Assembly: GCA_014905635.1 (NCBI GenBank)
Contig: JABVCE010000021.1
Location: 558,001-622,000, forward strand
Direction: 5' to 3'
DNA from: Scenedesmus sp. PABB004
Lineage: Eukaryota
DNA: 64,000 nucleotides
Every line of letters begins with the position of its first letter. The first letter of the stretch is position 1. Position numbers and translations under genes: made by a program. Positions 15,305-53,256 of this stretch are shown here, one piece after another. The notes below the pieces were generated by a model, which ran no database searches, was not told the origin of the DNA, and saw only the letters and a list, made by a program, of their open reading frames with translations.

Positions 15305-17658
15305 ATGGCGCACCTGCTCAAGGGCGGCGCCCCTGGCGTGCTGAGCGGCAGCACGCGCCAGGGCGCGCGCGTGGCGGGGCTGGCGCCCAAGCACGCGGCC
15401 GGGCGCGCCCGGCGGGCGCTCCGCTGCTCGGCGATGGCGCCCAGCAGCTTCATGGGCGCGCGCCTCGTCCGCGCCGCGCCCGTGGCGGTGGGGCCGCGCC
15501 GTGGCGGCGCCCGGGGCAAGGGCCTGGTCGTGCGCGCCATGTTTGAGCGCTTCACGGAGAAGGCCATCAAGGTGCGCCCCCCGCGCCGGGGCGCCGGGGC
15601 GCCCCGCCAGCGCCGCCCGGGGCTGGCCAGGGCGACGCCCCAGCGATCGGGGCGTGGTGGCGGCCCGCCCGGTGCCCACGGCGGGCGTTTTCCGGGGCGC
15701 GCGATCGGTGGCCCAGGGCTGCCGCGCCCCGCGCGCCCCCTGCGCGCCGCGGGGCGCCCCCCGGCGGCGCATGGCCGCGCTCCGCGCATGGCCGCGCGAG
15801 GCGGGGCGATGCGGGCGCCGTGCGCGGCGGCGACGCTACCACGGCCGGGCTGAGGCCGCGCCGCCGCTGCCGCCGCCGCCGCCGCGGCGCCCGCGCAGGT
15901 CGTCATGCTGGCGCAGGAGGAGGCGCGCCGGCTGGGCCACAACTTCGGTGCGTCGCCGCGCGGCCCGCGCGAGCGGCGGGAGGGCGCGGCGGGAGGGCCA
16001 GCGGGCGCACGAGCGTTGGCGCCGCCGCTGCCGCGCGCGCACAGCAGCGGCGTCGGCGGCGGTCGCGGCAGCAGCGCGCAGCAGCGGCAGGAGTCCAGGG
16101 CGCCCCTGCCGCGCCGGCGGTCGCGCGGCCGGCGGCGCATGCGCGCGCGGCCCCCTCCATGCGCGCGGCCGCGGCCCGACGCCGCCGCCGGCCGCCCGTC
16201 CCGCGCGCGCCCCCCCTCCCCCTCCCCCTGCCCCGCAGTCGGCACGGAGCAGATCCTGCTGGGCCTGATCGGCGAGTCGACGGGCATCGCGGCCAAGGTG
16301 CTCAAGTCGATGGGCGTCAACCTCAAGGACGCGCGCGTCGAGGTGGAGAAGATCATCGGCCGCGGCAGCGGCTTTGTGGCCGTTGAGATTCCCTTCACCC
16401 CGCGCGCGAAGCGCGTGCTCGAGCTCTCGCTCGAGGAGGCGCGCCAGCTGGGTGCGTGCGGCGGCGCGGCGGCGCGGCGCGGCGCGGCTGCGGCGCGGCG
16501 GCGGTCGACGCGCGCGGCGCGGCGGCGGCGCGCGCGCGGCCGGCTGACGTTTGAACGACCCGCGCTGACCGCCCCGCCCGCCAGGCCACAACTACATCGG
16601 CACCGAGCACATCCTGCTCGGCCTGCTGCGCGAGGGCGAGGGCGTCGCGGCGCGCGTGCTGGAGACGCTCGGCGCCGACCCGTCCAAGATCCGCACGCAG
16701 GCGCGCGGCGCGGCGCGGCGCGGGCGACTGGCGCAAGAAACGAACGCCGCCCGCCGCCGCGCGCCGCCGCGCCCGCGCCGACGCCCCGCGCCCGCCGCCG
16801 CCACTGCCGCCGTGCGCCCCGCAGGTCATCCGCATGGTCGGCGAGAGCCAGGAGGCGGTCGGCGCGGGCGTCGGCGGCGGCAGCGCGGGCAGCAACAAGA
16901 TGCCCACGCTGGAGGAGTACGGCACCAACCTCACCCGCCAGGCCGAGGAGGTGCGCGGGCGGGGCACACATCAGCGGCGCGCCGCAGCGCGCGGGGCCCT
17001 GCGGCGCGCCGCCGGGGGGCGGCCTCGCGCCGCGCCGTGCGGGCTCAGGCTCTGCCCCCCCCCCCCTCTCCTCGCACAGGGCAAGCTGGACCCCGTGGTC
17101 GGGCGCAAGAAGGAGATTGAGCGCGTCATCCAGATCCTCGGCCGCCGCACCAAGAACAACCCCTGCCTCATCGGCGAGCCCGGTGCGCAGCGGCGGCGGC
17201 GTGTGTGGGGCGCGCGGGGCGCTGCGCGCGGCGCGCAGCGGGGCGGCGCTGCGCGCGGCGGCGCTGTGTGCAGCGCGGCGGCGCGCGGCGCGGCGGCGGG
17301 GCGGCGGCCGACCCGCCGCCCGCGCGCGCGCGCGCAGGCGTGGGCAAGACGGCCGTGGCGGAGGGCCTCGCGCAGAAGATCGCGACCGGCGACGTGCCGG
17401 AGACGATCGAGGGCAAGCAGGTGCGCCCCCACGCCGCGCCGCGCCCCGCTCCCCGCAGCTCCTCCCCCGCGCCTCGTCTCCCCCCTCTCCCTCTCCCCCC
17501 TCTCCCTCTTCCCCCTCGCGTCCCCTCTCCCGCCTCGCACATGCCCGCCCACACCTGCCCGCACACACCCACACACCGCCACCCGCCCACCCGCCCACCC
17601 GCCCGCCCGCCCACCCGCCCCCCGCCAGGTCATCACGCTCGACATGGGCCTGCTCGTC

Positions 17659-20969: not shown

Positions 20970-21023
<54 letters not shown>

Positions 21024-22611
21024 AGGCTACGTGGGGTACCAGGAGGGCGGGCAGCTGACCGAGGCGGTGCGGCGGCGGCCGTACACGGTCGTGCTGTTTG
21101 ATGAGATCGAGAAGGCCCACCCTGACGTCTTCAACATGATGCTCCAGGTGCGGGGGACGGCCTGCACACCCGCGCCGCTAGGCATAGATGGCAGCGGCCG
21201 CAGAAGCGCGGCAACAGGGGGCGGGGCTGGGCTCGCGGCGCGGCGGCGCCCGCTGCGCCCGCCGCGCCCTCCCTCGCTCCCTCCCCGAGCGCCGCCGCCC
21301 GCTCACGCCCCCGCCCCGCCGCCCACCCCGCACACCCGCCCAGATCCTGGAGGACGGCCGCCTGACCGACAGCAAGGGCCGCACGGTCGACTTTAAGAAC
21401 ACGCTCATCATCATGACCAGCAACGTCGGCGCGAGCGTCATCGAGAAGGGCGGCCGCAGCTTCGGCTTCTTCCTGCGCCCCGACGACGAGGAGGCCGAGC
21501 AGGTGACGCGCGGGGGGTGGCGGGCGGGCTGGCCGGCGCCACGCGAGCTGCGTGGGCAGGCTGCGGGCGCGAGCGGGCGCGGCTGCGTGCGCGGCCGCCT
21601 GACTCGAGACACCCACTCGCCCACGCCCACACCCATGCTCGCACGCACACCCGCACCCACGCACCCACACACCACACACTCACACCCGCACCCGCACCCA
21701 CACACCACACACTCACACCCGCACCCGCACCCACACACCACACACTTACACCCACACACACACTCGCACCCGCACCCGCACCCGCACCCGCACCCCCCCC
21801 CCCCCGCTCCCCCGCAGGACATGAGCTACAGCCGCATCAAGTCGCTCGTGAACGAGGAGCTCAAGAGCTACTTCAGGCCCGAGTTCCTCAACCGCCTCGA
21901 CGAGATCATCGTCTTCCGCCAGCTCACCAAGAAGGAGGTCAAGCAGGTGCGCCGCGCGTGGGGGCGTGTGCGCGCGTGTGTTGCGCGTGAGCGCGCGCGT
22001 GCGTGTGTGTGCCGAGCGCGCGGCGGCACGCGCGCGCTGCCCACGCGCTCGCGCGCTCGCGCGCCGCGCGTCCGCGTGCGCGCAGATTGCGGACATCATG
22101 CTCCGCGACGTCTTCAAGCGCGGCGAGGAGAAGGGGCTGAAGATCGAGGTGACCGAGAAGTTCAAGGACAGGTGCGTGCTGTGTGAGCGTGTGAGCGTGT
22201 GTGTGTGTGGGGGGGGGGCTGGCAGAGCGGCGCGGCGCCACGCGACGCCGCCGCACGCGCGCTCTCTCTCTCGCTCTCTCTCTCCCTCCCTCCCTCTCTC
22301 TCTGTCTCTCCCTCTCCCCCTCCCTCTCTCTCTCTCTCTTTGCTGCCTTCTCACTCGCTCTCACACCCCCACCCCCCACCCAACAAAGGCTCGTCGACGA
22401 GGGCTTCAACCCCGCGTACGGCGCGCGGCCGCTGCGGCGCGCGATCATGCGGCTCATCGAGGACTGCCTCGCGGAGCGCATCCTCATGGGCGACATCAAG
22501 GAGGGCGACGTCGTCATCATGGACGTGGAACCCGACGGCGCGATCGCGGTGCTCGCGGGCGACAAGAAGATGCGGCAAGTCATGGACGCCACGCCCGCGG
22601 GCATCTCCTAG
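15305..22611 (+). CDS. CLPC: Chloroplast ClpC/Hsp93 AAA+ chaperone; 23 exons
   Basis: Transit peptide, then [12 protein letters not shown]. Clp-N repeats, NBD1 (GEPGVGKT, IDEVH), UVR region ([15 protein letters not shown]) and NBD2 ([38 protein letters not shown]). All 22 introns splice in frame (17 GT-AG, 5 GC-AG). Confidence 0.98.
19122..19185 (+). repeat. Intronic (CCCCTCTGCC)x5 followed by a poly-C run before the acceptor
   Basis: Read directly in ClpC intron 18911-19187. Confidence 0.9.
20973..21023 (+). repeat. 51-nt poly-C tract abutting an acceptor AG
   Basis: Read directly in ClpC intron 20865-21025. Confidence 0.9.
21645..21805 (+). repeat. Intronic CA-rich (CACACC/CACCCG) compound repeat
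   Basis: Lies in ClpC intron 21503-21817. A complementary (GGGTGT)n occurs at about 20049-20088 and (CT)n at about 22262-22340. Confidence 0.8.
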
Positions 22612-27645: not shown

Positions 27646-28696
27646 ATGGCGACCTGCTGCGAGGCCCATGCGGTCGACCCCATCCCCCGCACGGCCTCCG
27701 CGGCCGTGAACCTGGCCCACCTGAACGAGTGCTGCAAGAAGCACGACGACGAGGACACCTCGGGTGCGCCAGCGCCCTGGGCGCGCCGGCGCAGGCTCGG
27801 GCTAAGCGCTTAGCCCCGGTCGCTCCGGGGCCGTGCATTGCGCCTTTTTCGCACGCCCGAGCGCCTGCGATCCGCCTGACGTTGCCTGCCTCGCCGCCCG
27901 GCCCCGCCGCGCTCGCCCCGCGCTCGCAGGCATCAGCCACCCCCACGCGGCCTTCATGGAGCGCGCCATCTACCTGAGCCGCGTGGCCGGCCTGGAGAAG
28001 CGCACCGGTGCGGCCCGGCGCGCGCCGGCGGGCTGGGGGCGGCCCTGGCGGGCGCTGGCGGGCTCGGGCCAGCCGGCCCGCTCCTCGCGCCGGGCGCGCC
28101 TGCCGCGCCGCGGCGAGCACCTCGTCAGCTGGCCCTGACCCGCCCGCGCTCCCTCGCGCGCAGGCGGCTGCTTCGGCGCCGTGGTGGTCAAGAACGGCAA
28201 GATCGTGGGCGAGGGCTACAACAACGTGATCAGCCACAACGACCCCACCTGGTGCGCGCCAGCCGCCGTGCTCCCCGCGCCGCCGCCGAAGACGCCGCGC
28301 CGGCCCCCGCCGCGCCGCCGCCGCCGCCGCGCCGCGCTGCGCCAACGCCCACGCGCTGCGCTGCGCGCCGCGCGCAGGCACGGCGAGGTCGGCGCGATCC
28401 GCGACGCGAGCGCGCGCCTCGGCACGCCGCACCTGCGCGGCTGCGTGCTCTACACGAGCAGCGAGCCCTGCCCCATGTGCATGGGCGCCGTGTACTGGGC
28501 GCGCATCGACAAGGTCTTCTACGCGACGACGGCCAAGGACGTCAAGGAGCACGGCCGCTTCGAGGACGAGGACTTTTACCAGGAGTTTGCCAAGCCCCCC
28601 GCCGACCGCAACATCCCGGCCATCGAGTTCATGCGCGACGAGGCGGTCAAGGTCTGGGAGGAGTTTGGCCAGCTCCCCGACCGCTGCCACTACTGA
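27646..28696 (+). CDS. Guanine/guanosine deaminase (cytidine-deaminase fold, GuaD/GSDA type)
   Basis: GGCFGAVVVKNGKIVGEGYNNV..NDPTW|HGEVGAIR, LYTSSEPCPMCMGAVYWARI, F.D..FY.E and a terminal Tyr. Zn motifs HxE and PCxxC. Three GT-AG introns. Confidence 0.9.
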
Positions 28697-29057
28697 GCCG
28701 CCCGCGGCAGGCCGCCGCCGCCGCGCGCGCGCGCGCGCGCCCCGCACGCCGCGCCGGCGCCAGCGCCGGTGCTGCGCGGGGCGCGGGGGCGCGCCGCGGG
28801 GCGGGGACGGGACGGGCGGACGCGGGGCGGGGCGGGGCGGGGCGCGCGCGGCCGGCGACTTTGCCGCCGCGCGCGCCGCGCCCGTCGCCGCCGCACGCGC
28901 GCCGAGCGCCGCGCGCGCGTCGTGTGCTCTGCTGGGCACGGGGCTGGCGCCGCGCGCTGGTCGGTGGGCGCGCGGGAGCGCGTGTACGCTGCGTGCTTGC
29001 TTGGTTGTACCAACAGCCCCTCTCTCGAGATGTGGTGGTTGTGTTTTGATCTGCACA

Positions 29058-29423
29058 GGCGGTGCGACGGCCGCCGGCTCACTGCGTTTTCGGGGGCATC
29101 CGTGGTGCGACTGCCACGCAGCACACCGGTCGTTTAGGTCGGGGCTTCACTCCGTGGCGCGCGCGCGCGCGCGCGCGGCACGCGGCAGGCTTAGGCAGCA
29201 GTGGCGGCGCTCCGCTCCGCGCCCCCTTTGCCGCGGCCGGAGCGTTCGACCCCAGAACTGCGGGGGGCGTCCGCAGGACGAGCGAGCACTGCTGAGCGCT
29301 GAGAAATGAACCGGGTGCGACTGCCCGGATCCGGGTGCGACTGCCCGAGCGAGCGTGCGGGTGCGACTGCCTGGCACATATAAGCAGCGGGTGCGACTGC
29401 CCGCAGTGGGTGCGACAGCCCAC
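29058..29423 (+). repeat. Array of seven stem-loops sharing the core GG-TGCGACNG-CC
   Basis: Copies at 29058, 29101, 29311, 29332, 29355, 29387 and 29406. Each has self-complementary flanks and is separated from the next by a unique spacer. Confidence 0.85.
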
Positions 29424-29831
29424 GCCTCCTCCTCCAACCAAACCCCATTGCATGCATTCCCTTTTCCCTTCAGTGAGACAGGCCCGCGGGGCGCTGCGCG
29501 CGCCGTGTCTTCTTGACGGCGCGCGCCGCCGCCCCGCGCGGCGACGCGGCCGCGGAGTGCGCGCGGCGGGCCGCGGGCGAGAGCCCCGCCCGCCGGCGCC
29601 GCACGTGCATGCGCAGGGACACACGCCCGCCGGCCGCGCAGCGCCGCCGCCGCCGCCGCGTGTGAAGCGGTGGCGGCGGCGGGCGCCGCGCGGCGCGGCG
29701 GGCAGGCGGGCGGTTGACAGCACCGCCGCCCGCCGCGGGCTGGCCGACAGCACCGCCGCCCGCACCTCACCACACCCCCAAACACACACGCGCGCGAGCG
29801 GAAGTGCGTTGCTCGTGATACCACACCCGCG

Positions 29832-29836
29832 TGTAA
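29832..29836 (+). terminator. Possible TGTAA poly(A) signal
   Basis: First TGTAA I see downstream of the deaminase stop. A TGTAC variant near 29006 is an alternative. Confidence 0.3.
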
Positions 29837-30464
29837 ACATGAACTTCAAAGCGCGGACCGAGCGGCGTCAGTGCGGCGCAGCGAGCGAGCTGTCAGCTGA
29901 GCTGAGGGCGGGCTGCAGCCGCGGCGGTAGGCAGCAAGGCGCACGCGCACGCCGCGGCAGGCAGGCGCGCTGCGGCGCTGGCTCTCGCGCTCGCCGGGCA
30001 CGCGGGGCATGTGTTGGGAGTTGCACAGCGGCGGCGGCGGCGGCTGCTCGCCCCACCCGGGCGCGAGGTGCGTGGCGCCGTCGCTGCGGGAGCGGCACAC
30101 GGCGATTGCCCGATTGCCCGCAAACACGCGACCAAGCGACACACGCGACGCGGCGCCGACAGACAACACACACCTCCGCCGCGGCCCCACCACCATCCGC
30201 CGTTGATTGATTGGACAAGCGCCGCCGTCGATCTGATTGATTAATCTGGTTGATTGGGGGAGCCCGGCCGGGAGGACCACGCGGTCCCGCCACACGAGGG
30301 CGCAAAAAGGCAAGTGCACTTCTGCCGCACGCCCCAGTTCCGCCGCCGCCAGTACGAGAGGAGTAGTAGTTGACCAGCGGGCCGCGCGGCGCGCGACACG
30401 CAGCGCACAGCGCCCGCCGCCGCCTTGCCGCGCGCGCGCGCGTCGCGCGCCGACGCCGGCGCGC

Positions 30465-34787
<4,323 letters not shown>

Positions 34788-34886: not shown

Positions 34887-37224
34887 ATGGCCGCCCTCAC
34901 GCAGCACAGTAGGGTTGTGCTGCCGCAGCAGGCGGCCTGCCCGCGGCTGGCGGCCGCCGCGGGCTGCCGGCGGCCGCGCAACGGGCGCGTGGCGGTCCCG
35001 GTCGTGGCGGAGGCCCGCGCCAGCGCGGCCTGGGGCGCGCCGCGCGCGCTGCGGCCGCTGCGCGCGTCCCGGCGAGGCAGCGTGGCCGTGGCAGCCGCCG
35101 CGGCCTACCCGTTCAAGAAGAAGGACGCCCGCCTGGTGCTGGAGGACGGCTCGGTGTGGCCGGGCACGGCGTTCGGGGCCACGGGGACCGAGGTGGGGGA
35201 GGTGGTCTTCAACACCTCCATCACCGGCTACCAGGAGATCATGACCGACCCCAGCTACAAGGGCCAGTTCGTGTGCTTCACCCACCCCCACATCGGCAAC
35301 GTGGGCATCAACGACGGTGCGCCGGCGCCCAGCGCGCGCGCGGCGGCGGCGGCGGCGGCAGCCGGCGGCGGCGGCCGGCGGCGGCAGCGGCGGCAGCAGC
35401 AGCGGCAGCAGCAGCGCCAGCAGCAGCGCCAGCAGCTGCGGCGGCAGCTGCGGCGGCAGCACACGCACGCGCCGCCTCGCGCCGGCCCGCCGCCCCCGCC
35501 GACCCGCGCGCGCCCGCCCCGGTGGCCGCGCCAGACGACGAGGAGAGCGGCGCGTGCCACCTGGGCGGCATCATCGTGCGCGACCTGTCGATCGTGGTGT
35601 CCAACTACCGCAGCGTGATGTCGATCGAGGACTACTGCAAGAAGCACGGCGTGATGGGCATCGCCAACCTCGACACGCGCGCGCTCACAAAGGTGCTGCG
35701 CGAGACGGGCTGCCTCAACGGCGTCATCACCACCGGTGCGCGACCGGCTCGCCCCGCTGGCAGCTGCGGCGGCAGCGACGGGGCCGGCGGCGCGGGCGGC
35801 GGCGGGAGCAGGAGCCGGCGGCCCGCGGGCGCCGCGCGGCCGGCGGCTGAGCGCTGCCGCCGCGCTTTGCTCGCGCGGGTCTGCGCGCGCAGACGCGTCG
35901 AAGAGCACTGAGGAGCTGGTGGCGATGACCAAGAACTGGACCATCGTGGGCAAGGACCTGCTGAGCGTGGTGTCCTGCAAGGAGCCGTACGAGTGGCGCG
36001 ACTCGACGCTCTCCGAGTGGGAGTTCAGCGACGGCGCCAAGGCGACGGCGGGCGGCAAGCGCTTCAAGGCGCGGCGCCCGCGGCGGCGAGCGCGCGGCGC
36101 GGGCGGCGCGCGGGCTGGCTGCTGGGGTGGCAGCAAGCGGCAGCGGCGGCACACGCGCGCCCTCACGCCCGCCCCGCGCCCGCCCGCCCGCCCGGCCACA
36201 CCCACACCCGCCCACGCCCGCGCACGGCGTCCCTCCTGCCACGGCAGGTCGTCGCGTATGACTTTGGCATCAAGCTCAACATCCTGCGCCGCCTCGCGTC
36301 GTTCGGGTGCGACGTTACGGTCGTGCCCGCGACCTACCCCGCTGACAAGGTGCTCGCGATGAACCCCGACGGCGTCTTCTTCAGCAACGGCCCGGTGCGT
36401 GCGTGCGTGGGAGGGAGAGGGCCCCGGCCGCGCGCGCGGCGCGTGTTTGCCTGCGTGTGTGTGTGTGGGGGGGGGGGGTGTTATTCAGCAACGGCCCGGT
36501 GCGTGGGAGGGCGGCGGCCGCGCATCGAGGGACGGGGCGGGCGAGGCAGGGGAGGGGAGAGGGTGGAGGGACGGGCAGGCGAGAGGGGCAGGGGGCCCGC
36601 GGCGGCGCTGAGCGCGCCGCGTGCGTGCCGCGTTCGCCCCCGCAGGGCGACCCGTCGGCTGCGCCGTACGCTGTCGAGAACGCCAAGGCCATCCTGGGCA
36701 AGAAGCCGGTCTTTGGCATCTGCATGGGCCACCAAATCCTGGGCCAGGCCTTTGGCGGCAAGACCTTCAAGCTCAAGTTTGGCCACCACGGCGGCAACCA
36801 CCCGATCCGCTACAACCCCACCGGTGCGCGCCCCGCGCGCCCCGCGAGCGCCCTGCACGCTCCGCCTCCACCCTGCTGCCCCCCGGCCCCACGCCCACCC
36901 ACCCACCCACCCACACCCACACCCCACCCACCCACCCACCTCACACCCACCCACCCACGCACCCGCGCGCGCGCAGGGCGCGTGGAGATCAGCGCGCAGA
37001 ACCACAACTTTGCGGTCGACCCCGCGAGCCTGCCCGAGGGCGTGGAGGTGACGCACATCAACCTCAACGACGGCACCTGCGCGGGCATGGTCTGGCCCGC
37101 GGCCAAGGCGATGACGATCCAGTACCACCCCGAGGCCAGCCCCGGCCCGCACGACGCGGACGTGTGCTTCGAGCAGTTTGTCGACATGATGCGCGCAGAG
37201 GTCGGCAGCGCCGTCGCGGCGTGA
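34887..37224 (+). CDS. carA: Carbamoyl-phosphate synthase small (glutaminase) subunit, plastid-targeted
   Basis: [61 protein letters not shown] (catalytic Cys), FGHHGGNHP and [12 protein letters not shown]. Five introns. Confidence 0.97.
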
Positions 37225-48669: not shown

Positions 48670-49171
48670 CGCCCGCCCTGCCTGGCCTCACGCGCCGCGC
48701 GCTTGCGCCGCCATGTTCCGCTGCCGCGCTGCTCGGCGCCGCCGCAGCTGCTGCCGGGCACCGCCTGCCGGCTGCGGGCGCAGCTCTGTTGCCTGAACCA
48801 GCGAGAGAGGCGAGGCCCGCCAGTTAGCAGCGTCAGAACGCGGCACATGCCCCCGAGTGCAAGCCGAAGCACCTCAGGCGCCCGGCCCTGCTCCATCGCA
48901 CTGAACCAGCTTGGTGAAATCCGTCGCGCCCGCGACCGCTGCTCATCGGCCAGTGTCGGCGCAGACCAGCACACCCGCGCCCGCCAGGCGAGCCGATTGA
49001 TCGCCGCGCCGTGCGGAGGGCTGCGGGAGCTCGTCCTGCGACAGCCGCGCCGGGCGGCCGCCGCGCCTGCGCCGCCGGCGCAGCGGGCGCGGCGAGCGAG
49101 CAGCGGCGCGCTCCGGCGCGCCGGCGCGCGGGCGCAGGCGGCCGCCTGCAGCCCCGGCGCGCGGCGGGCGC

Positions 49172-52590: not shown

Positions 52591-53256
52591 CCGCCAGGCT
52601 GCTCCGCCGCGCGGGCACGCGTGTACTGTACAGCAGCGGGCGCGCAGCGTGCGTGGCGTACGAGGGAGCGTGCGTGCATGCGTCGTGCACGGCAGTCCGG
52701 CCAGGGCGCGGGAGCGCCGCCCCCGACGACGCCGGCCGCGGGTCTTCGGGGGGGGGGGGGGCGTTTGAAAAGCGCGACTCGGGGCTTGCGGCGCCGCCGC
52801 CGCCCACGCCGCCGCCGCCAGGCTGCTCCGCCGCGCGGGCACGCGTGTACTGTACAGCAGCGGGCGCGCAGCGTGCGTGGCGTACGAGGGAGCGTGCGTG
52901 CATGCGTCGTGCACGGCAGTCCGGCCAGGGCGCGGGAGCGCCGCCCCCGGACGACGCCGGCCGCGGGTCTTCGGGGGGGGGGGGGGGCGTTTGAAAAGCG
53001 CGACTCGGGGCTTGCGGCGCCGCCGCCGCCCACGCCGCCGCCGCCAGGCTGCTCCGCCGCGCGGGCACGCGTGTACTGTACAGCAGCGGGCGCGCAGCGT
53101 GCGTGGCGTACGAGGGAGCGTGCGTGCATGCGTCGTGCACGGCAGTCCGGCCAGGGCGCGGGAGCGCCGCCCCCGGACGACGCCGGCCGCGGGTCTTCGG
53201 GGGGGCGTTTGAAAAGCGCGACTCGGGGCTTGCGGCGCCGCCGCCGCCCACGCCGC
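52591..53256. repeat. Three tandem copies of a ~225-bp unit
   Basis: Units start at 52591, 52815 and 53041 (periods 224 and 226). They are near-identical apart from poly-G length and one extra G. Confidence 0.95.

Follow-up and report, generated by a model that had tools for sequence, protein, structure and literature searches.

Why should seven small hairpins with one and the same loop, set on stems of differing sequence, stand in a row behind a guanine deaminase gene of a green alga? The question is raised by a stretch of 64,000 nucleotides of Scenedesmus sp. PABB004 (contig JABVCE010000021.1, positions 558,001 to 622,000), here called the window, with positions counted from its first letter. 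For this alga a genome of 39.8 Mb with 78.5% GC and 1.31% repeats is reported (PMC12571836). The hairpins were first described in an initial annotation made from the sequence alone, the claims of which are taken up below where results bear on them.

Genomic setting

The window has a GC content of about 77–83% throughout, and the introns of its genes are of the GT..AG type. Homology places ClpC at 15.4–22.6 kb on the + strand, CDK5RAP3 at 23.2–25.8 kb on the − strand and carA, the small chain of carbamoyl-phosphate synthase, at 34.9–37.2 kb on the + strand; the first exon of carA is identical at 143 of 143 residues to an NCBI protein of Scenedesmus sp. PABB004. The hairpins themselves are flanked by a deaminase of the cytidine-deaminase fold, the last exon of which occupies 28377–28696 on the + strand and ends in a TGA at 28694–28696, and by glutamate dehydrogenase (GDH), the last exon of which lies on the − strand at 30465–30596 (stop codon at 30465–30467) and covers positions 202–241 of the 241 in the Pfam ELFV_dehydrog profile.

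The upstream gene had been called a purine deaminase. Its last exon aligns best with the guanine deaminase of Bacillus subtilis, including the GuaD-specific C-terminal part (PDB 1TIY/1WKQ, E ~1e-21), and matches TadA structures at only E ~1e-9, so the earlier name was correct and the enzyme can be specified as a GuaD-type guanine deaminase. The closest named sequence is that of Chromochloris zofingiensis, with 85% identity, and the intron at 28251–28376 is spliced out in an RNA contig of a relative. The zinc-site motif at 28379–28387 reads HGE, the usual GuaD/TadA form being HAE. The idea of a tRNA deaminase, under which the loop letters UGCGA would recall the edited UACGA anticodon loop, was dropped because the enzyme is GuaD-like rather than TadA-like.

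The deaminase stop on the + strand and the GDH stop on the − strand are 1768 nt apart, and the hairpin array lies in this gap. Codon periodicity is absent between the two stops, the GC phase range being at most 0.27 against 0.38–0.62 in windows of the flanking exons. The array sits in non-coding DNA 3' of the guanine deaminase and opposite GDH. Its first hairpin starts 362 nt past the deaminase stop, close to the 360 nt or so originally estimated, and its last lies 1042 nt beyond the GDH stop.

Seven hairpins with one loop

The initial annotation listed seven hairpins in a single orientation, and all seven are present where it placed them, on the + strand. They are given here with their scores in a covariance model built from the seven copies and with the probability P that each forms in a model + transcript. 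The first two are hp1, GGCGG-TGCGACGG-CCGCC at 29058–29075 (5-bp stem, 27.2 bits, P = 0.98), and hp2, CGTGG-TGCGACTG-CCACG at 29101–29118 (5 bp, 26.2 bits). A (GC)n microsatellite at 29157–29177 separates them from the other five. Of these, hp3, CCGGG-TGCGACTG-CCCGG at 29311–29328 (5 bp, 30.9 bits, P = 0.97), is followed by its tandem duplicate hp4, CGGG-TGCGACTG-CCCG at 29332–29347 (4 bp, P = 0.86), with a period of 20 nt. The stem of hp5, GTGCGGG-TGCGACTG-CCTGGCAC at 29355–29377 (24.0 bits), consists of two uninterrupted base pairs and a bulged extension, 7 bp overall with the bulge and one G-U on the + strand; its folding energy is −11.5 kcal/mol as + RNA and −6.6 as − RNA. The last two are hp6, GCGGG-TGCGACTG-CCCGC at 29387–29404 (5 bp, 31.2 bits, P = 0.94), and its 19-nt tandem duplicate hp7, GTGGG-TGCGACAG-CCCAC at 29406–29423 (P = 0.99). 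Apart from hp5, uninterrupted Watson-Crick pairing beside the loop extends to 5 bp in five copies and to 4 bp in one.

Each unit can thus be described as five Watson-Crick pairs with a possible U-G closing pair, giving a loop UGCGACNG, or a hexaloop GCGACN if the U-G closes. The spacer motif CATATAAG, at 29377–29384, and the downstream TGTAA, at 29832–29836, were likewise found as first described. TGTAA is the chlorophyte poly(A) signal and might serve a + transcript here; the pentamer is hardly enriched in the window (five occurrences against 2.8 expected), so that its presence is weak evidence.

The combination of loop and stem is what sets the array apart. The exact 12-mer GGTGCGACNGCC occurs seven times in the window, always on the + strand and always between 29061 and 29420, against an expectation of 0.31, and no shuffle out of 100 reached seven. 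The bare loop 8-mer TGCGACNG, by contrast, shows no enrichment over the window (22 sites, seven of them in the array, where 20.6 would be expected), and a stem of at least 4 bp accompanies just one of the 15 sites elsewhere. Stems of at least 5 bp are found at 7.3% of the 1316 GG-N8-CC sites in the window, from which the binomial probability of at least five in seven is 3.8e-5. When the window was scanned without bias for clusters of hairpins that have a loop in common, the array ranked first. The scan also picked up, by its identical hairpin loops at fixed spacing, a repeat of about 226 nt that is present three times at 52680–53240.

Covariation and the origin of the copies

A 12-nt core is constant in all seven copies and the three outer stem pairs vary yet stay paired. 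For example, hp7 differs from hp6 by a C-to-T change in the 5' arm that is offset by a G-to-A change in the 3' arm, a compensated replacement of C-G by U-A. In the alignment of the copies, which are seven paralogues at one locus and include two pairs of recent tandem duplicates, 95.2% of cells are paired, against 75.0% in shuffles, and seven cells are altered on both sides, against 2.4 expected; neither value was reached in 500 shuffles. Sliding the partner columns as a control left 31–64% paired. The initial annotation had maintained that the outer stem letters change while pairing is kept, and had named equal pairing in shuffled controls as one observation that would count against the array; the claim is borne out and the controls do not reproduce it. 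The changes are also unevenly placed: of the 18 columns of the hairpin, seven hold all of them, at least 14, and 11 hold none (P = 1.8e-6 if rates were uniform, for columns that were picked post hoc). The structure is constrained in both its loop sequence and its pairing.

As an alternative, a short palindromic unit might have been spread by local tandem duplication, its stems being kept or re-made by template switching as a by-product at the DNA level with no function in RNA. Template switching during replication is reported to create and maintain hairpins (10.1101/2021.04.15.439925). Microsatellites abound across the array region, and TRF finds two plain two-copy tandem repeats there and no others, with period 20 at 29315–29359 (hp3 and hp4) and period 19 at 29384–29421 (hp6 and hp7). 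The unique spacers of the initial annotation are a property of the remaining copies. Start-to-start spacings are 43, 210, 20, 26, 30 and 19 nt, and hp1, hp2 and hp5 are out of register with any period; in place of the regular period and uniform divergence of a simple tandem repeat or minisatellite, the array has irregular spacings, an invariant core and diverged flanks. The by-product reading leaves it unexplained that 11 core positions are the same in all seven copies when adjoining stem positions and spacers have diverged past alignment.

Real tandem repeats of the core provide a comparison. We scanned public collections for two core 12-mers 5–35 nt apart, which retrieved at least 118 metagenome, three viral and at least 120 prokaryote loci. 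The multi-copy matches inspected were regular tandem repeats of period 12–18 nt with identical 'stems', and among the 241 matching loci listed one had two distinct stems, none had three or more and none was array-like, which again speaks against the by-product reading. Algal nuclear genomes are scarce in or absent from these collections, and the scan therefore says little about relatives. We consider an origin of the array as a DNA-level by-product unlikely.

Compensatory change bears equally on the suggestion that the units are read as duplex DNA by a sequence-specific protein, for example as a polar roadblock or terminator between genes that converge. The common orientation of the seven sites between two such genes would suit that role, for which arrays of terminator sites offer a comparison, but duplex recognition gives no reason for compensatory changes in the variable flanks, and we think this reading very improbable.

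Searches for a family and for further copies

The array had originally been said to match no recognised element. An Rfam search agrees: no match to any family was obtained at gathering thresholds in the whole window, and Rfam 15 searched over 28000–31000 at E-values of up to 1 gave only a weak SNORA77 outside the array, with 20.2 bits against a threshold of 42. At 49046–49129 ARAGORN calls an 84-nt tRNA-Gly(GCC), but Rfam finds none there at its gathering score; the call is a probable false positive of GC-rich DNA. Within the literature on UGCGAC stem-loops and on green-alga UTR stem-loops we found no element with the motif of the array.

When the covariance model was run unfiltered over the whole window, all seven copies were among the nine best matches. 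The top match outside the array, at 33527–33548 on the − strand (19.2 bits), is a real splice donor of GDH, CAG|GTGCGG, a resemblance discussed below. By covariance model, 12-mer count and self-BLAST, no second copy of the core or of the array flanks was found in the 64-kb window; self-BLAST of 28950–29900 against the window returned GC-rich low-complexity matches only.

These results weigh on the initial proposal of a transposon, under which the array would be a remnant or a subterminal repeat block of a non-autonomous element. A short cluster of repeats in the same orientation, lying within pockets of lower GC (52–72% against ~79%), does have that look. Yet no terminal inverted repeats bound the array (28960–29500 yields only (CG)n matches), the second copy is missing from the 64 kb, the genome is reported to have 1.31% repeats (PMC12571836), and subterminal repeats would have no reason to keep covarying stems. 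We judge the transposon proposal improbable. In an RNA run containing transcripts of relatives, the deaminase messages diverge immediately past the stop (loose end at 28694), so that no orthologous 3' UTR was obtained.

Strand, folding and transcription

Which strand would carry the element? The stems are symmetric and equally Watson-Crick on either strand. Strand-specific wobble pairs in the variable stems number one for + (in hp5) and one for − (a U-G in hp4), so that wobble does not decide the matter. As isolated units, all seven hairpins are stabler as + RNA than as − RNA, by 0.8–4.9 kcal/mol, since a sixth pair can be formed there between U1 and G8 of the loop; the + advantage therefore comes mostly from these same conserved loop letters. 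In longer context, five of the seven form in a model + transcript spanning 28697–29860, with P of at least 0.86 and loops open, against two of seven in a model − transcript (30464–28990). The hairpin hp2 is in the local-fold centroid and is not predicted in the long-context + fold. Centroid folds keep hairpins only on +, the − centroid being nearly unstructured. Overall folding energy is no better than that of shuffles (z = 0.24), as expected for short local hairpins in GC-rich RNA, and the support from folding is therefore local only. On these models folding favours the + strand, that is, the 3' UTR of the deaminase.

If the element worked instead on the − strand, as part of an antisense RNA or of a long 3' UTR of GDH, its loop would be CNGUCGCA, a sequence complementary to that of the donor consensus. 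The symmetry of the stems and the U-G gained by hp4 on − would allow it, and there is some sign of it in keto skew, the + strand being C+A-rich (negative skew), and hence G+T-rich on −, at about 29380–29470 and 29710–29830, like the two UTR starts examined; this strand marker is noisy, was calibrated on those two UTR starts and is a weak hint at best. The array itself, however, lies in a stretch of positive keto skew that continues from the deaminase stop, the distance to be spanned from GDH (1042 nt to hp7) is much longer than the 362 nt from the deaminase to hp1, and every unit is weaker on −, with so few of them forming in context. A − strand element seems improbable to us.

Transcription of the array is hinted at by a 151-nt contig from an oligo-dT RNA-seq run, which matches 29224–29374, a segment containing hp3, save for one base of a G run; the contig comes from a metagenome library that carries no strand information and in which DNA carry-over is possible. 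Two DNA runs match 28911–29210 and 28960–29122 and, having no cover over 29255–29485, are uninformative on copy number. The interpretation of the array as 3'-UTR RNA, one of those offered in the initial annotation, fits, for the + strand, both the predicted folds and this one contig.

Comparison with known hairpin systems

Several described systems consist of small hairpins with a fixed loop in an mRNA. The 3' UTR of MAT2A contains six hairpins (hp1–hp6) with a fixed loop read by METTL16 (PMC7927073). As in our array, several 3'-UTR hairpins of a metabolic-enzyme mRNA carry the same loop on non-identical stems, and there one protein reads them and so sets the fate of the mRNA. The loop differs: MAT2A has UACAGAGAA with a defined loop-transition structure, and the array has UGCGACNG on a plain 5-bp stem, the METTL16 motif being absent from all seven array loops. 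The settings differ too, a vertebrate lineage in the one case and a green alga in the other, for which a reader is only hypothetical.

The 3' UTR of transferrin receptor-1 bears five iron-responsive elements (IREs) through which a binding protein governs mRNA stability; it resembles the locus studied here as an array of small fixed-loop stem-loops in a 3' UTR. In an IRE the apical loop, CAGUGN, has 6 nt, and the stem contains a bulged C. The array loops have 8 nt (or 6), read UGCGACNG on + and CNGUCGCA on −, different from the IRE sequence on either strand, and gave no Rfam IRE match.

T-arm-like hairpins of mRNAs, with the motif GUUCNANNC and a 7-nt loop, are described as substrates of tRNA-modifying enzymes. 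They share with the array a 5-bp stem closed by G-C and a loop in which U comes first and C, a purine and A occupy positions 3–5. The corresponding array sequence, GUGCGACNGC, mismatches the motif at letters 3 and 9, with G instead of U as its third letter, and its loop has 8 rather than 7 nt. Finally, the Smaug/Vts1 recognition element is a CNGGN loop on a stem, and the − strand loop CNGUCGCA has U, not G, as its fourth letter.

Having the defining motif of neither the MAT2A hairpins, the IRE nor the T-loop-like hairpins, the array is therefore better seen as a variant of that kind than as a member of a known family. Judged by analogy of layout, its closest analogues would be the METTL16-read hairpins of MAT2A and the IRE array of the transferrin receptor.

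Resemblance to splice donors

A different likeness comes from the alga itself. The fixed core of every copy starts with GGTGCG, on the same strand as the upstream gene, and its first six conserved letters equal the consensus of the alga's 5' splice sites. With exon ends fixed by homology, to the alga's own or near-identical proteins for carA and the deaminase and to a conserved homologue for ClpC, the sequence G|GTGCG was found at 22 donors of ClpC, carA, the deaminase and GDH. Omitted from this set are introns with other donors, one of them in carA (AAG|GCGCGG), the last one of GDH and, judging by the ends of the alignments, about seven in ClpC. Donors are unusually uniform, as can be seen at 15571, 20008, 21147, 35316 and 36823 on + and at 33543 on −. 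A minority apparently start with GC, for example the carA donor AAG|GCGCGG at 36069 and that of the last GDH intron. Sites of the AGGTGCG type are enriched in the window (19 against 7.6 expected; none of 100 shuffles reached 19).

Some further features of the window may be added. Within a ClpC intron, 21652–21794 on the − strand is a run of GGTGCG hexamers ((CGCACC)n on +), an antisense microsatellite of the donor hexamer, and a homopolymer of more than 30 C at about 20984–21018 immediately precedes a ClpC exon with its start near 21019. In the intergenic region of the array, at 29716–29768, there are two copies of a direct repeat of 23 nt, GACAGCACCGCCGCCCGC..., with 30 nt from one to the other; on its − strand the repeat holds a donor-like site, AGGTGCGGGCG.

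The hairpins could accordingly be masked copies of a splice donor, with the core G|GUGCG binding U1 snRNP or another donor-recognising factor, or could be alternative donors. Splicing-type recognition would then be coupled to 3'-end formation, nuclear retention or decay of the message of the deaminase, with the stems setting how accessible the donor is. Besides the shared consensus, this is encouraged by the two donors of the deaminase gene itself, both of which lie in 4-bp hairpins with the layout of the array, CCGG-TGCGGC-CCGG for the donor at 28007 (28003–28020) and CTGG-TGCGCG-CCAG for that at 28251 (28247–28264); outside this gene, two of 20 donors have such a hairpin. Stems of at least 4 bp occur at four of the 22 donors against five of 133 other GGTGCG sites (Fisher P = 0.024, in a comparison made post hoc). 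The idea that the alga's donors generally lie in such hairpins was rejected, those four being all of the 22 and none of the 15 in ClpC having one, a scarcity that also detracts from the donor-copy reading.

Against that reading stands, first, the hexamer itself, which is common and not enriched in the window (162 against 167 expected), so that the donor match is only a lead; we estimate the chance of meeting GGTGCG in a random conserved 12-mer at about 2%, and several other known motifs were compared as well. Secondly, the hairpins differ from donors. All seven have A at +6, which none of the 22 donors has, the conserved ACNGCC tail of their core falls outside the donor consensus, the G at donor position +1 forms a pair of the stem, and they are embedded in stems within a 3' UTR. 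Thirdly, the RNA contig, from coverage so shallow that donor use could easily have been missed, runs colinear and unspliced through hp3 and hp4, with no joint listed in the array. As a 3' splice site for such donors we considered the CAG at 29471, which alone among those downstream is pyrimidine-rich; real acceptors are C/G-rich and this one is rich in T, so that it gives no support. On balance a role as masked or alternative donors, together with the coupling that it entails, appears to us rather unlikely.

A more specific version takes its cue from the recurrence of one layout, present at each of the two real donors of the deaminase gene and in seven copies in its 3' UTR. The hairpin might then be a gene-specific tag displaying a donor look-alike, GGUGCGAC, through which one reader would tie splicing to 3'-end fate; this reader would be U1 snRNP or else a protein or helicase dedicated to binding the hairpin. 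We regard this version as decidedly unlikely.

A candidate multivalent platform

The reading that we prefer, with a probability of about 0.4, is that the array serves, on the + strand and within the 3' UTR of the guanine deaminase, as a multivalent stem-loop platform for a loop-specific reader. The array would be transcribed within the deaminase mRNA, and we infer both a trans-acting reader and an effect of its binding. The short stem of each unit would hold out the invariant loop UGCGACNG, which otherwise might be buried in competing pairs in a transcriptome of ~79% GC, and the seven copies would together offer a multivalent surface to a reader that recognises the loop on its stem. That reader may be an RNA-binding or RNA-modifying protein, or an snRNP, and would set the fate of the message through its stability, 3'-end formation, export or translation. 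The initial annotation had also envisaged metabolite binding, a suggestion left without support by units that each consist of a 5–6 bp stem and a 6–8 nt loop.

To our knowledge, the elements that control the nuclear mRNAs of green algae after transcription have hardly been charted. An array whose copies covary offers a clean experimental handle on them, since mutations of loop and stems, and compensating ones, can be made in a reporter, and the hairpins can serve as bait for their reader. If the link to the donor consensus were true, the array would join recognition of the splicing type to the function of a 3' UTR, in an alga that has industrial uses. Were the hairpin a gene-specific tag, the splicing of a nitrogen-salvage message would be tied to its 3'-end fate, a form of control that we do not know to have been described in green algae. 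More generally, the array raises a question for extremely GC-rich genomes, such as this one with its reported 78.5% GC (PMC12571836): short single-stranded motifs that serve for recognition may there need dedicated hairpins in order to stay open.
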